Below are positions 20,101 to 58,599 of a DNA stretch of 64,000 nucleotides, piece by piece. Below the pieces are notes generated by a model, which worked only from the letters and a program-made list of their open reading frames with translations, made no database searches and was not told the DNA's origin. Numbering within the stretch: the first letter of the stretch is position 1; every line of letters starts with the position of its first letter. The stretch is taken from contig NW_024704742.1 of assembly GCF_018977255.1 (NCBI RefSeq), forward strand, positions 69,814,001 through 69,878,000, in the 5' to 3' direction. The position numbers and the translations under genes were made by a program. This DNA is from Callorhinchus milii (taxonomy: Eukaryota).

Positions 20101-20233
20101 TTGATGGTGTCAAACTTTTCGGTTAAAGGGTTTCATGATTCAAGGTGAATCAAGAAAAAGATTTACAAAATAACTGGGGAATTCAGGATTCAAAATCTAA
20201 AGTCAAATTAACCATGTAAGAAAGTGTCCTTAC

Positions 20234-20347
20234 CTGAATGCTGCCAATAGTGGAGCATAAACTGAGTCCCCATCATACACATATAAATGGTCCCAGCTGC
20301 ATTCTGTAGCAAAGTGATTGAATCGAAGCCTTAATATAGTGTTGGGC
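20234..20347 (-). CDS. ATRN: Attractin coding exon 3 (CUB), 114 bp
   Basis: Acceptor tttgttcag, donor gtaagg. Translation PNTILRLRFNHFATECSWDHLYVYDGDSVYAPLLAAF(S). Confidence 0.96.
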
Positions 20348-21199: not shown

Positions 21200-21283
21200 T
21201 GTCCTTCAATAAGCCAGGTACATTTTGTTTTGTACTTGTAGTTACCAGGTCCATCAGTCAGATACCCAGAGGGACCCGACAAT
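21200..21283 (-). CDS. ATRN: Attractin coding exon 2 (CUB domain start), 84 bp
   Basis: Acceptor ctttacag, donor gtaagt. Manual translation (K)LSGPSGYLTDGPGNYKYKTKCTWLIEG(Q). DGPGNY and IEGQ favour ATRN over ATRNL1. Confidence 0.96.
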
Positions 21284-21796
21284 CTGTAAAGCACACAAAG
21301 AAAGAGGCAATCAATAAAAAGAATGAACTGGCTTTGCATTTTTAAATGAACTGGTGAAACAATACTACTAATAATAATCCTTACATTTGATATAGCACCT
21401 TATCACGTCGTTGAGACTTCTCAAAGCGCTTTGCATGTAGATTAAGGAAACTTGCCTAAGGTTCTGCCTCACCAGGGAAAATTGAACACTGCTCCTCTCG
21501 CTTGGGAGGCGAGCACGCTACCCACTACCCTATGAGACTTCACAAAACAACTGGGAAACAGTAGCCTAGAAACCTTTTGGACATCTTAAAAATAAAGCAA
21601 AGCCTTGGAATTGATAGTGAGGCTAGAATACTGAAACATCTTAAAGAGCTTCATCTTGTTGTCAAGTGTGACAACTCTATTTCCAAATGCAACAGTGAAT
21701 TTGCATACCACAAGATCCCACCAGCAGCTATAAAATGAATGACCAGTTTATTTGGAGGATTGTTGACCATCTATCAATGGTAAGCAATGTGGTTTT

Positions 21797-37337: not shown

Positions 37338-37418
37338 CGTTCTGATGAAGGGTCGTGGACCCGAAACGTTGACTCATTTTTCTTTCTCCATAGATGCTGC
37401 CTCACCTGCTGAGTGTTC
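37338..37418 (+). mobile_element. Penelope-type terminal fragment with minimal hammerhead motif (left part; right part at 40556-40620)
   Basis: CTGATGA-A-GGGTC-GTG-GACCC-GAAAC-GTT, followed by sequence homologous to the arm of the 54665-54871 element. It resumes as TGTTCCCAGCGACTTCTGC after the L2 insertion. Confidence 0.7.
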
Positions 37419-38168
37419 AACCTCGCGACTTCAACATCCACTTCACCCTCTCCTGCTCCACCTCCTCTCTCAACCTCTCTCTCCACATCCACCCTGCTAC
37501 CCACACCCACGGTCACCCACTCGACCTGGTAATCACCCAGGGCCTCAGCGTCCCGGATGTCACCAGGCCATCTCTGACCACCATTTCATCTCCCTCAACT
37601 CCCATATCCCTCTCCCCACTGCTTCCAAACCTACCACCATCTTCTACCGTCCTAGAAGAAGATCTCCCCGTAATCCCTCTCCCCTGCCCTGGAGTCATCT
37701 GAACTTCTCCCCCTCTGGCCCACCTCTTGCAACAACCACTCACTGACTCAATCTTCTCCACAGCACCCTCTTCACCACACTCGACGTCCTTGCCCCCCTC
37801 ACCTCCCTCACCGCCTCCTATTTCCGATCCTCACCCTGTTTCACCAGCCACCTCCGTTTGCTTAAGGGCCAGGTGAGGTCTGCCGAATGCAATTGGCTCA
37901 AATCCGGCCTAACGGTCCACCGCCACATCTGGCTGGACCTCATCAAGACCTACCACTCCTCTCTCACCTCAGCCAAATCGTCCTTCTATTCCAGGTTAAT
38001 CCTGGAGGCAAAGGGCAACCCCAGACTCCTGCTCTCCACCACTAACCGGCTCCTCCACCCTCCCCAACAAGCCTCGCAGATACTTTCCTCTGACTCTCAC
38101 TGCGAGAAAATGCTGGACTTCCTCGAGTCCAAAATTGAGGGAATCCGCTCAGCTGCCACTACCCTCCC

Positions 38169-38482
38169 AGTCCTGTAGCTCAGTGGTTAGAGCACTCGCT
38201 TTGCAAGTGAGACACCTGAGTTCAATTCCAGGCAGAGGGCGAAACCTTGGGCAAGTTTCCTTACTCCACACAGAGCCTAATAATAATCCCTCCAAAAAAA
38301 AACAATAATAAATTGGTCATTTTCAATCTACGACTGTTTGTTGGACATTGCTGTGCGCAATTGGCTGCCGCGTTCGCCCACAAATATACAGTCAATTCAC
38401 TTTACAGTATATTCTGTGAAGCGCTTTGGGACGTCCTCCCGACGTGAAAAGCGCTATATCAAATGCAAGGATTATTATTATA
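38169..38482 (+). mobile_element. Young tRNA(Ala-like)-headed Deu-type SINE
   Basis: A box TAGCTCAGTGG, anticodon arm CTCGC-TTTGCAA-GTGAG, B-box-like GAGTTCAATTCC, Deu-like core GCTGTGCGCAATTGGCTGCCGCGTT, L2-like tail and (ATT)n end. Confidence 0.9.
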
Positions 38483-39866: not shown

Positions 39867-40195
39867 ATAATAATAATAATAATAATAATCCTTGCATTTG
39901 ATATAGCGCTTTTCACGTCGGGAGGACGTCCCAAAGCGCTTCACAGAACACACTGTAAAGTGATTTGACTGTATATTTGTGGGCGAACGCGGCAGCCAAT
40001 TGCGCACAGCAATGTCCCACAAACAATCGTAGATTGAAAATGACCAATTTATTATTGTTTTGGGTTTGGAGGGATTATTATTAGGCTCTGTGTGGAGTAA
40101 GGAAACTTGCCCAAGGTTTCGCCCTCTGCCTGGAATTGAACTCAGGTCTCTCGCTTGCAAAGCGAGTGCTCTAACCACTGAGCTACAGGACTCCA
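39867..40195 (-). mobile_element. Young tRNA-headed Deu-type SINE inserted in L2
   Basis: Near-identical reverse complement of 38169-38482, with short duplication CTGAT at 39864-39868 and 40201-40205. Confidence 0.9.
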
Positions 40196-43100
40196 GCAGA
40201 CTGATCTGCTGACTCCCTACCAACATGCCCGCTCCCTCCTTTCATCGGGCTCCGGTCTGCTCCATGTCTCCCACCCGACCCGCCCTACCATCGGTGGCCG
40301 GGCTTTCAGCCTCTCTGTCCCCACACTCTGGAACTCCATCCCATGGTCCCTTCGCCTCGCTTCCTCCCTTGGCTCCTTCAAGGTCAGTCTCAAGACCCTT
40401 CTCTTCGATCGTGCCTTTGGTCTCCCTCCCACCTCTCTGCCTTCCCTCACCCGTACACCACCCCTCCCCCATGCTCGGGCCCCAACACCTGACTGTTCAG
40501 CGCTTTGGGACATCCTTCCAACGTGAAAGGTGCTCTATAAATGTAAGTTTGTTGTTGTTCCCAGCGACTTCTGCTTTTGTTTCAGATTTCTAGCATCTGC
40601 AGTATTTTGCATTTTGTTTTACATTATAACAGTAGTTTAGTTCCACAAAAATCGGAGACTGTTATACCCTGATTATACAGAACACCCGCATTATTATTGG
40701 AGTTGAGGTGCATATCAGCAATGATCTAATAGGATGGCGCAACAGGTTTGAGGGACTGAATGGCATACTCCTTTTCCTATATTCCTATGTTCCGTAGCAC
40801 AGTGGTAGCAAGAGAACCCGGGTTCGATTCCCAGTAAATAGGAACCCTATTACCCCCAGTTTCCGGAAGTAATGATCCTTAAAAAAAATTGGTCACTCAA
40901 TCTACAACTGTTTGCAGGACACTGCTGTGTTCAATTGGTTGCTGTGTTTTCGCACAAAATACATAGTCAATCCACTTTACAATATATTCTGTGAAGCGTT
41001 TGAGATATCTCAACGACATGATATGGCTCTGTATCAAATGCAAGGATTTATTTTATTATTATTGATAAAAGACCTGTGCTTCATCAAAGCATGTTTTAAT
41101 GGGGTCCAACTAGACTCAGAAATTGATGAAGGATGAAGAAATAGGATTAAAAGATCATCTGCCGTGAATTGAATCAACAGAATGGACTCTTCTGTTCCTG
41201 CGTAACAGAGGGTTCCTTGCTCTTCTTTGAATTTATGCCAAGAGATCTGCAACGCATCGTACAATCAAACCAACGAGAGCGATTATACCCAGTAAACCCA
41301 GGTCAGTATGGGTTTAGCAGGTCACAGAAGTCGGGAGGAGCAAGCCTTTGAAAGCAAGGACGAGGATTTTGAACTCTATCCTCTGGAGGCCAATGGACCC
41401 AGGCGAGGGTGGGGTGATAGGGTCAAAGAGCATGGAGTGGGAGACGATATGAGCTGCAGAGTTCTGAATGATCTGTCACTTGTGGAAGGAAGAGTTGGGA
41501 AGTCCAACAAGCAGGGAAAGAAAGAAATGGAAGGGCAGAGAGGACAGATAGTATTGTAAACTACCACAAACAGATTGACAGTTGTGTGAACTCAACATAG
41601 AGCCTAGAAACCCTATCATGCATCAATTAACATTTCAACTCATACTTCGGGATTTACAGGCCAGATTACATTAGATATAAAAACTCAGCATCAAGCTAGC
41701 TTTTGGAAGAACCTGGAATGGCTTTATGAGAAGCAGAATCTCACTCATTTGGTCAAAAGTTGCAAGTTCCTTAAGGGAAATGGTTTAAATTTTTATACAA
41801 TCTTTTGCAGAAGGATGCCTTCCAAGTGCTTTCTGCCATTTGCAGAATACTGCATGTACTGCACAGAGACGTAATGCACAACAGAGGAGCAGACACCCCT
41901 CTCCAGAGGAAAGGCAAAACAAAACTGCATGGCCTTGTTACAAGGTAGTTCACATGGCCAACTTACAGCTGATAGGATCCCAAAGACCGGGCAACAGTCT
42001 GTGGGGTATGATTTCACCCAAATTTTCACCCCACAAAATGCATAGTCAATTCACTTCACAATATATTCTGCAATTTGAGTTTGAAACTTCAATGACCTGA
42101 TAAGGCGCGATATCAAATGCAAGCATTATTATAAGATGAGGGTAAATGTGAGAGGTTCAACAAAGCCAAACATTTTGTAAGATTTTGAAGGCAGGGAAAG
42201 AAGATGCAATAAAAGAAAAAAGGTTTTTGGGAGGGAGTGCCAGAGAATCGGGGGGAGAGGGGAAGAATCTCAAATCTCTTTCAAATACAGGGATGAATAG
42301 CATATCAAACACAAATATTCTTTATATTAGGCAAAAAGGAGATTAATCTGGATAGCCAGCACCAGGATACAAAGCAGCAGCTGAAGTAAACAGCCCTTTT
42401 CTAAGAGCAAGCAAAGTCTTAAGAAAAAAGGGAAAGGCCGCAAGACTGTTCAGCACCTTGGGACGTCCTTCCCACGTGAAAGGCACTTTGCAAATGTAAT
42501 TTTGTATTGTATAGTCTCTAAGATGAGACGTAATTAAGAATACTTGCATTTGTTATTGCGCCTTTCACATCTCAAAGCACTACACAGGATACATGTCAAG
42601 TGTAGTCACTGTGTGTATTTATAGGCAAACATGGCAGCCAAGTTGACCACAGCAATCTCCCCAAAACACAGGCATGAAGTGAATGAGCAATTTTTTCTGG
42701 GGATTGTTGGCCAGGACGTAGGGAGAAAATCTCCCTCCTCTTTTCAGTTAGTGCCAAGAGATCTTTAACAATCACTCGACCAAGCAGACAGGACCTCAGT
42801 TTAATATCTAATCAGAAAAACAACAGCTACCACAACAGTTCTCCTGCAGCTGTATTAGTGTCAGCAGATATTGTGAGTTCCGAGGCCCAATCTGAGGCTT
42901 GAACCCAGAACTTTCTGATTCAGGCGAGAGGCGAGCCAGGCTGACACCATGCTGAGGTCTCGTCTGTTCAAGTAAAAGGATTTCATGGTGTAATTTCAAG
43001 GAGGGTGCATGTCACTAATCATAACACAAACAAAATTAATCCTAAACATAGACTAATCGGTCATTCAGTAAAATGTCACTTATTGGACAGTGTAGACAGT

Positions 43101-47644: not shown

Positions 47645-47970
47645 AATAGATAATTATAATAATCCTTGCATTTGATATAGCACTTTTCACATCTTCTGGA
47701 CATCTCAAAGCACTTTACAGAATATACGGTAAAGTGAATTGACTGTATATTTGTGAATAAAACGCAGCAGCCAATTGCACACAGCAATGTCCCACAAACA
47801 GTCGTGGATTGAAGTGACCAATTTTTTTTATTATTGTTTTCTTTTCTTGAGGGATTATTATCAAACATGTGGAGTAAGCAAACTTGCCCAAGGTTTCACC
47901 CCGGCGGGAATCGAACCCAGATCTCTCACTTGCGAGTCAAGTGCTCTAACCACTGAGCTACAGGACTCCA
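47645..47970 (-). mobile_element. tRNA-headed Deu-type SINE, full length
   Basis: Head CTCTAACCACTGAGCTACAGGACTCCA, B box GGGAATCGAACCC, core and tail. Confidence 0.85.
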
Positions 47971-52965: not shown

Positions 52966-54664
52966 CATACAGCGCCTCATCATGTCATTGAGACGTCTCA
53001 AAGCCCTTCAAGAATATACTGTAAAGTGAACTAACTGTATATTTTGTGGGTGAAACCCGGCAGCCAATTGTGAACAGCAGTGTTCCACAAACAGTCGTGG
53101 ATTGGGTGACCAAATTATTATTTGAATCAAAGTATGTAAACTACTGGGCACGAGGCTTAATTTACTACACTTTCATGACTGGTACCAAAGACTAACATAA
53201 GCCTTCTAATGTTTAAACTGAAAATAATTAAACTATTAGTCGTCAAAATACTCAAACAATGTTAATAACTCACTCAGACCTTGTATTGGTTTATTATGGT
53301 GACCCATGTATGCAAGTAGGTAAATAATCTCCTATCAACTCATCTGTCACAGAAGCTGACGGTAAAAGTCATATATGAGATCCCTTCAGAGATGTCCCTT
53401 TTCAAGAATGAAAAGCTTGTACTTGTATGTCTGTACAAAGCTTCATTCACTTATGTCTCAATAGCCCTGGAATTAATACTTGGTAAAATCTGAATTCTTG
53501 CTGTCTCCTTACTTGTGATGAAAGCTTAAAGGTTTCAACTTCAAAAATATATATAAACAGAAATCGCAAGTCACAAATACTGTGCAAAAACAGAAGTTGT
53601 GTTCCCAGCGACTTGTTTTTGTACTGTTCTGTAGATTGCCTCCCAAAACTCAGATTACCCAAGACTTCAAAGCAAAGTGAAACAGCAGTTTTGTGCAAAC
53701 TATACACCAACTTCCCGCCGCATTAGAAACAAATTTATGTAGCACCTTCCATAACGGGGAGGACATCTCAAAGCACCTCACACAGCTGACTTGTCACCTG
53801 AACTGGGGAGAATGAGAACGGCAGAGGTAGCCAAAGCACAAAGGTCAAAGAGATTTGAGGGTAAAGAGGAAGGGTTGAGCAAGGTGGAGGGACTCCACGA
53901 TGGAGCTCCAGTGAACGGGAGCAGAGTTGCTGAAATCTTACCCATCAACGTTGAGTCGGAGTGGATAGGGGACGTGAAGCAGGTCTGAGCAGAGGTAGTG
54001 GCTGGGGCAATAAGATTCCAGGGCACAGATCTAGGATGGAGCTGTGCATTTTGTAGGTAGACACAGCAGCCAATTTTACCTGGGGGATTTTTGGCCAGAA
54101 TAACCAGGAGAAACTCTCTTCTCCTTTTGAATGGTGTTATGGATTATTTAACGTCCACCTAAACTGACATACTAGTACCGTTTTAACGTCTTATCTTCCA
54201 TTCTGTGAGGTGCTCTCTCCCCTCTGGGTTAGATGGTTGTGGCTCAAGCCCCACTTGAGGAATTACGCTCATAGTCCAAGCTGACCCTGGGGGAGCGCTG
54301 CATTGTCAGAGGCCAAAAATCTTCATCCCGCTGAGGGATGGAGAGCAGGAGAAGACAAGAGTGGATGGGAATGATGGGCTCGCAGAGCATGGTGCAAGAA
54401 AGAACACAGGCTGGAGAGCTCTGGATAGTTTGCAGCTTGTGTAAGAAGATGCTGGGGAATCCAGCAAGCAAGGTGTTAAGAGTAACCCAGCAGAGAAGGG
54501 TCTCAGCAGCCTGGAAAAAGGTCAAGAGGAAAAGTGGGAACATAGGCAATAATCAAAAAAACAAAGATCACAGACCCACTTGAATGCATAAAACCTGCAT
54601 GAGTTTCTTTCCAAATTCTTTTAAGCTTTGACCATCTCTTTTTGTGGCTGAGTATCAAGAAATT

Positions 54665-54871
54665 ATAAACAAAACGCAAAATAATACAGATGCTGGAAAT
54701 CTGAAAGCAAAAACAGAAGTCGCTGGGAACACTCAGCAGCTCAGGCAGCATCTATGGAGAAAGCAAAGTGAATCAACATTTCGGGTGCATGACACTTCGT
54801 CAGAACTCAGTTTCCTTTCTCCATAGACACTGCCTGACCTGCTGAGTGTTCCCAGCGACTTCTGTTTTAGT
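54665..54871. mobile_element. Palindromic Penelope-type element with 12-bp target-site duplication
   Basis: 54-bp inverted arms at 54710-54763 and 54815-54868 (3 mismatches). TATCAAGAAATT flanks it at 54653-54664 and 54872-54883. The loop holds a degenerate CTGACGA...CGAAA motif on the minus strand. Confidence 0.75.
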
Positions 54872-54961
54872 TATCAAGAAATTGTGTTTTGTTAATTTGT
54901 TATCAAAAGTTGAACGTAGAAAGCAATGGTAACAGGTTGAATTTGGAGAAGGCAAAGGGGC

Positions 54962-55043
54962 CATACTAAATCTACATCTACTCTCATACTAAATCTACGT
55001 CTACTCTCATACTAAATCTACGTCTACTCTCATGCTAAATCTA
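54962..55043. repeat. 23-bp tandem repeat, about 3.5 copies (CATACTAAATCTACRTCTACTCT)
   Basis: Units start at 54962, 54985, 55008 and 55031 (partial). Confidence 0.9.
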
Positions 55044-57914: not shown

Positions 57915-58192
57915 TTGAAGCGGCCCCCGCAGTGCTGGCACTGCTCGCCCACCCAGCCGGCCTGGCACACACACTGCCCGCTCTCGGTGTCGCAGGCGCC
58001 GTGCGCGCAGCCCCCGTCCCCGCACTCCTTGCCCTCGGCCCCGGGCGGCCCGCACCGCGGCAGCGCCGCCAGCAGCAGCAGCAGCAGCGGCGGGAGGAGG
58101 GCGCCGAGCGGCAGGAGCCTCCGACGGGGCGAGTAGCAGGACTTCGGGCCGCCATGACCCCGGCGACTCGGCTCTCGCTCCTCCGCCGCCAT
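57915..58192 (-). CDS. ATRN: Attractin coding exon 1 (signal peptide + first EGF-like domain)
   Basis: ATG at 58192 in strong context (GAGAACATGG). Translation MAAEERE...LLPPLLLLLLAALP...KECGDGGCAHGACDTESGQCVCQAGWVGEQCQHCGGRF resembles attractin (GWVGEQCQHCGGRF). Ends in phase 2 at donor GTGAGT and is GC/CpG-rich. Confidence 0.93.
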
Positions 58193-58250: not shown

Positions 58251-58420
58251 CAGGCACTGCGCCTGCGCCACACTCGGACACCCCCAGGCACTGCGCCTGC
58301 GCCACACTCAGACACCCCCCCCAGGCACTGCGCCTGCGCCACACTCAGACACCCCCCCCAGGCACTGCGCCTGCGCCACACTCAGACACCCCCCCAGGCA
58401 CTGCGCCTGCGCCACACTCA
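58251..58420. repeat. Minisatellite, 5 copies of ~34-37 bp CAGGCACTGCGCCTGCGCCACACTC(A/G)GACA(C)n (last copy partial)
   Basis: Units start at 58251, 58285, 58322, 58359 and 58395 and differ mainly in C-run length. Confidence 0.95.
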
Positions 58421-58599
58421 CTGACAGCTGGGCGCCAGCGGTCGCACTGCGCATGCGGGGCTTCAGAGTGACTCCCCTGACACTGACGTCACTTGGGCTG
58501 TTTTTGGCCATTGACCACTTGCAGAAACCCAACCCCAGTGTGAGCTCCATCCTAACCCGACACCGCCCGACACAGGGATCTCCCACACACAGACCGTCA

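Follow-up and report, generated by a model that had tools for sequence, protein, structure and literature searches.

Within the 64-kb window analysed here (the whole stretch of 64,000 nucleotides), a discrete hairpin with a hammerhead-like loop occupies positions 54653 to 54883, and it raises the question of whether such a structure is the debris of a known retroelement, a mobile element in its own right or an RNA feature put to use by its host. Sequence comparison identifies the insert as the truncated 3' pseudo-LTR of an endonuclease-positive Penelope-like element (PLE) with a Neptune-type linker, present in two copies placed back to back. On the preferred reading, to which a probability of roughly 0.85 is assigned, two head-to-head truncated PLE 3' ends lie in a 12-bp duplication and are likely the product of two-ended priming, their cDNAs having been joined at a 3-base overlap.

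Anatomy of the hairpin and its hammerhead motif

Inverted arms at 54710–54763 and 54815–54868 differ at 3 of 54 positions and enclose a 51-nt loop. The 12-mer TATCAAGAAATT is found at only two places in the whole window, starting at 54653 and 54872, and bounds the insert as the left (54653–54664) and right (54872–54883) copies of a 12-bp target-site duplication on the plus strand, the spacing between both copies being 207 nt. The dimensions given in the earlier note for the arms, their mismatches, the loop and the duplication are all exact, and its proposal of a single insertion event with target-site duplication is supported. Beyond the 54-bp core arms the inverted repeat reaches about 68–70 nt, with 7 differences in 68, and folding gave z-scores of −13.7 on the plus and −14.7 on the minus strand, none of 200 shuffles being equally good.

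On a ruler whose zero is the T preceding the hammerhead core, the long arm (54666–54807, minus strand) is a pseudo-LTR copy running from −3 to +137, which matches the end of locus L059 over 142 nt (91.5% identity), and the short arm (54805–54872, plus strand) is an inverted pseudo-LTR copy running from +31 to +98, with 91.2% identity over 68 nt, which carries neither the hammerhead core nor a tail. The unpaired left stretch of 39 nt at 54666–54704 (minus strand), missed in the earlier note, is the PLE "tail" of about 38 nt and is present on the long arm only; its assignment draws on the 3' ends of relatives, which are bimodal at about +100 and about +135 in both samples described below (sets A and B). 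The alignments of the two arms overlap at 54805–54807, where a 3-nt microhomology common to both marks the inversion junction, and because these are the self-complementary bases of hammerhead stem I, the hammerhead core sits at the apex of the hairpin.

The motif CUGACGA..GAAA..GUU reads on the minus strand of the window from 54807 to 54771 and, judged by its sequence, by pair probabilities, by comparison with the family majority and by the motif types in the available text of PMC4209133, represents a degenerate minimal type I hammerhead. Its parts, all on the minus strand, are the core CUGACGA (54803–54797), stem II (54795–54783), the GAAA (54782–54779) and a cut site predicted from the motif between 54775 and 54774. 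The degeneracy noticed earlier is confirmed: the conserved core bases CUGACGA, GAAA and GUU are all kept, two of the five stem II pairs are broken, stem II is predicted not to form (pairing probability at most 0.016), the palindromic stem III stub is disrupted by a CpG change, and stem I pairs with probabilities of 0.72–1.0 in the predicted fold. With the minimal hammerheads of metazoan PLEs, as set out in the available part of PMC4209133, the window motif shares a type I core with an extra base before stem II, a palindromic stub in place of stem III and dispersed single or opposite-strand copies, but it differs from them in its broken stem II and palindrome and in a stem I that continues into the long hairpin. 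Single minimal hammerheads are described in the same source as giving no in vitro cleavage, and self-cleavage of the window copy is unlikely on the predicted fold.

An Rfam search with the window element returned no match to a hammerhead family; a match to plant MIR2118, which scored 33.6 bits where the gathering score is 85, was rejected, as it reflects no more than the long hairpin. Elsewhere in the genome, locus L012 (G000:C2:62209780-62209983) has the stem I junction of the window copy but a tail on the opposite arm and an apparently intact stem II, and thus carries a minimal hammerhead at the tip of its long hairpin.

The parent Penelope-like element

Both arms are about 91% identical to an actual copy of the pseudo-LTR repeat, and this repeat is linked to coding sequence at many loci. 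At L059, GIY-YIG coding remnants lie upstream of the same end, together with an inverted arm and a duplication; at L245, the frame coding for the endonuclease continues into the hammerhead; and 27 of 30 distinct endonuclease-bearing loci (19 top matches and 11 chosen for long frames) continue downstream into this pseudo-LTR. A 470-aa frame at L251 contains reverse transcriptase (RT) motifs, a thumb and GIY-YIG and has 184 homologs, some of them with RT and GIY-YIG Pfam domains and the best ones from sharks and rays. A Pfam search of the frame itself recognised no domain, a PDB search with it gave no match, and the Pfam GIY-YIG scores on decayed copies are weak and fall under the curated cut-off. 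Of the two possibilities raised in the earlier note, the inverted, truncated Penelope pseudo-LTR insertion is borne out by arms that map to a pseudo-LTR linked to RT and GIY-YIG.

The linker between RT and endonuclease reads CX4CxxC and is intact in six of eight aligned homologs, the first linker cysteine being lost in P0001. Neptune-type PLEs, in the available text of PMC8557442, carry a CX2-5CxxC linker before a C-terminal GIY-YIG, and the parent frame resembles them in having RT, thumb, linker motif and a GIY-YIG with an inner CxxC in the same order; unlike Neptune, the linker motif is degenerate in the examined copy. A CX4CxxC linker marks Neptune or Nematis, and the element is termed Neptune-type by this motif, with Nematis as a possible alternative. 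No shared sequence was found beyond the tail among 90 copies and hence no full-length 5' end; neither a full-length element nor a transcript start was found among the sampled copies. Three gene models from sharks and rays (P0004, P0009 and P0109) carry the names of unrelated host genes and consist largely of the PLE frame; they are probably annotation chimeras or exonised elements.

The window insert has an already published layout and is neither a retrozyme nor a novel mini-element. Insertions of Pen2a_Av, in the accessible portion of PMC3846280, and the general layout in that of PMC8557442 show head-to-head pseudo-LTRs as here, a 30–40-bp tail on one end as in the window copy, variable target-site duplications of about 8–16 bp as in the window family, and an overlap where the arms join, again as in the window copy. 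The window copy departs from the Pen2a_Av layout in having no ORF between the arms and in that both copies end inside the pseudo-LTR, which leaves a compact hairpin. An inverted-pseudo-LTR PLE insertion with a one-sided tail was already described in PMC2377424, as far as its available text goes. Non-LTR retrozymes, in the accessible part of bioRxiv 2026.07.22.740005, are likewise non-coding, hammerhead-bearing and derived from pseudo-LTRs, but they form head-to-tail families with a consensus unit, whereas the window copy is head-to-head with a private junction.

Host intron and presence in other genomes

The host gene is encoded on the minus strand, and its exon order (signal peptide/EGF, CUB, EGF, Kelch) fits attractin as read from the sequence; its residues would point to ATRN rather than ATRNL1. 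The first coding exon of this attractin-type gene (57915–58192, minus strand) combines a signal-peptide-like start with an EGF domain, domain matches place CUB exons on the same strand near 21,200–21,290 and 20,230–20,340, and further exons match CUB, EGF and Kelch/attractin propeller domains with weak Pfam scores. The element is situated about 3 kb into an intron 1 of roughly 36.6 kb, with its hammerhead in pre-mRNA sense. As intron RNA it is predicted to form a hairpin of about 68 bp, so that the long hairpin in host pre-mRNA anticipated in the earlier note is reproduced by folding. According to the available text of PMC5625713, lizard Penelope is heavily A-to-I edited, and elephant shark brain has about 200,000 editing sites, 81% of them in repeats whose families are unnamed there; by analogy, incidental ADAR editing of the intronic hairpin is plausible. 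Processing by Drosha/Dicer, which the earlier note also considered, finds no support.

In three further samples of the species (X1, X2 and X6), contigs cross one or both insert junctions, and the insertion is therefore not private to the assembly. In a relative (organism D), the match of a 527-nt contig to the left flank stops at 54663 and cover at an equal depth begins again near 54905, leaving no more than 59 nt unaccounted for, as against 241 if the site were filled and 22 if it were empty; the joint itself is not displayed, and the pattern indirectly suggests that the orthologous site is empty in organism D.

Intron 1 also holds two stubs of the same Penelope-like end, one at 37339–37432, untailed and with an intact-looking hammerhead starting at ruler −2, and a short, tailed one at 40556–40619; both are oriented like the short arm and could thus pair distantly with the long arm. 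A tiny palindrome at 53579–53627, in which two short fragments from near the +100 end of this same repeat are combined, is possibly a minimal two-armed insertion. Other features of the window include a 23-bp tandem repeat of about 3.5 copies at 54962–55043, which is polymorphic, samples X1 and X2 being one unit shorter; tRNA-like matches at 38173–38235, 40126–40188 and 47896–47967, probably tRNA-derived SINE heads; and GC-rich tandem units of about 31 nt at 58260–58440, just upstream of the host start codon.

Family-wide footprints and the route of integration

Four loci per 200 kb of arbitrary sequence correspond to about 20,000 copies genome-wide (5,400–51,000), and two-armed copies make up about a third. 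Relatives were drawn in two samples: set A comprised 90 of the 178 exact matches to the hammerhead motif, taken in listed order with one match skipped because it was already inside the arbitrary stretch, and set B comprised 90 of the 923 matches to a downstream motif, likewise in listed order, with three listed places skipped as second arms of loci already taken. Among the 178 distinct copies sampled in sets A and B, 62 are hairpins, of which 54 could be used for tail classification and 8 were dropped as unclassifiable. The tail is on exactly one arm in 51 of the 54, on neither in 3 and on both in none (P = 3e-12 against independence), and within the 51 one-tailed hairpins it belongs to the shorter arm in 29 and to the longer in 22. 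Solo copies comprise 54 tailed and 56 untailed.

The 5' ends in set B (n = 90) lie at −6 to +3 in 38 copies, at +4 to +54 in 24 and upstream in 28, a pile-up whose bin was picked post hoc and whose ends are blurred by a few bases through local alignment. The bin at the cut site (+28 to +34) holds a single end out of 90, on which grounds the idea that the ribozyme cut sets the ends was rejected. Exact flanking repeats of at least 8 nt accompany 15/30 hairpins in set A and 17/33 in set B, against 8/600 mismatched flank pairs in the control; about half of unselected hairpins retain a detectable duplication, and 24 of the 30 best full-length matches have duplications of 8–16 bp. Non-majority variants outside CpG that are common to both arms of a copy number 32 (shuffled mean 6.8, maximum 19 in 2000), and 278 of 310 variable sites are unshared between arms; the shared variants, mostly subfamily markers, could have arisen by gene conversion. 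Many junctions in set B contain several additional bases instead of microhomology.

From these genomic footprints only, we infer two-ended priming, in which both ends of one staggered target cut would prime reverse transcription. One target end would begin at the outer start site, copy the tail and run to the 5' edge of the hammerhead, which is probably the 5' end of the RNA, and the second would begin about 38 nt further in, acquire no tail and halt earlier; the two short cDNAs would then join via the 3-base overlap, and gap filling would yield the 12-bp duplication. For the stop of the long cDNA, CCAGTT at this edge may be read as initiator-like or as splice-acceptor-like, and both readings fit. 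Capture of a host exon at the possible splice acceptor was rejected on inspection, solo copies holding few extra bases between duplication and hammerhead. The start of the short arm (+31 to +34) adjoins the predicted cut (+30), which may be chance. In vitro work on the anole PLE Poseidon PAc (PMC11167929) found two RT start sites that bound the tail, matching both 3' ends observed here, and found hammerhead cleavage to be dispensable, just as the hammerhead cut does not set the ends in the window family; the study is silent on inversions and strict one-arm tails. It also found the RT start site to be the same for top and bottom strands, which counts against the two-ended reading.

The same PLE origin could also have been followed by inversion through fold-back self-priming, of the cDNA or on an antisense RNA (PMC3846280), with endonuclease trimming leaving one tail, a course of events that we consider unlikely. 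Its appeal is that the junction coincides with stem I, whose self-complementarity makes it a natural place for fold-back, that both arms of a copy derive from one source, and that self-priming and endonuclease-mediated resolution are published proposals (available portions of PMC3846280 and PMC8557442), the trimming of one tail off a two-tailed intermediate, as proposed in PMC8557442, predicting an identical asymmetry. Plain cDNA fold-back, however, cannot tail a copied shorter arm when the template arm is untailed, as in 29/51 hairpins, and one-arm tails so distributed thus argue against simple fold-back and fit two-ended priming; fold-back needs the added trimming step, with which it can explain the tails. 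The numerous junctions with several extra bases rather than microhomology further weigh against it.

Two other explanations fare worse than fold-back. An independent, non-autonomous hairpin element with fixed ends (retrozyme- or MITE-like), which would be transcribed and copied in its own right and use the hammerhead to process its RNA, is scarcely credible: all 40 candidates scored against the full-length query cover most of it on a single strand, yet they had been chosen by likeness to that query, and the uniform look of the 30 best matches, among which the inner junctions nevertheless differ, proved to be a selection effect that disappeared under motif-based sampling. In the motif-sampled copies inner breakpoints scatter from −13 to +99 (set A) and from −193 to +108 (set B), and the ribozyme-bearing mini-element that the earlier note had entertained, with the sharing of fixed ends among copies as its mark, is left unsupported, as the tail switches arms and breakpoints vary, the outcome that the note itself had named as speaking against such a family. 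Target-site duplications are common among relatives, vertebrate retrozymes derived from pseudo-LTRs do exist (available text of bioRxiv 2026.07.22.740005), and L012 shares the junction of the window copy; against this, the tail of L012 is on the other arm, 5' ends at the cut site are almost absent, no tandem array is present at the locus and stem II is broken. Co-option of this copy as a regulatory RNA hairpin in intron 1, whether as an edited structure or a microRNA precursor, is very unlikely despite a very stable predicted hairpin in pre-mRNA sense, its presence in the three other samples (X1, X2 and X6) and the massive A-to-I editing of lizard Penelope (accessible part of PMC5625713), since an arm divergence of 7/68 does not fall below the family median of 6.7% and so does not point to selection for pairing, copies of this kind should exist in the thousands, and the site appears, on indirect evidence, to be empty in organism D. 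The window copy is most likely inert debris.

Neither the strict one-arm rule nor the 5' pile-up was found in searches of the literature on Penelope twin priming and mechanism, hairpin small RNAs and shark hammerheads, although subscription papers and bioRxiv supplements may cover them. A single copy, as one of thousands in the genome, means little, and it is the family statistics that constrain PLE integration, with strictly one-armed tails, either arm tailed, and a 5' stop at the hammerhead edge, not at the cut. Hairpins of this kind will tend to be taken for microRNA precursors, MITEs or novel ribozyme elements. The odds appear even for a broader proposal, namely that PLE hairpins record integration, the two ends of one staggered cut priming on a common source RNA with an obligate use of two different start sites and the polymerase running off the RNA 5' end at the 5' edge of the hammerhead, and that, as a by-product, several thousand intronic double-stranded RNAs would feed ADAR in cartilaginous fish. 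If true, the two-ended-priming reading would make the hairpins a record, across the whole genome, of a step in PLE integration that is still unsolved.
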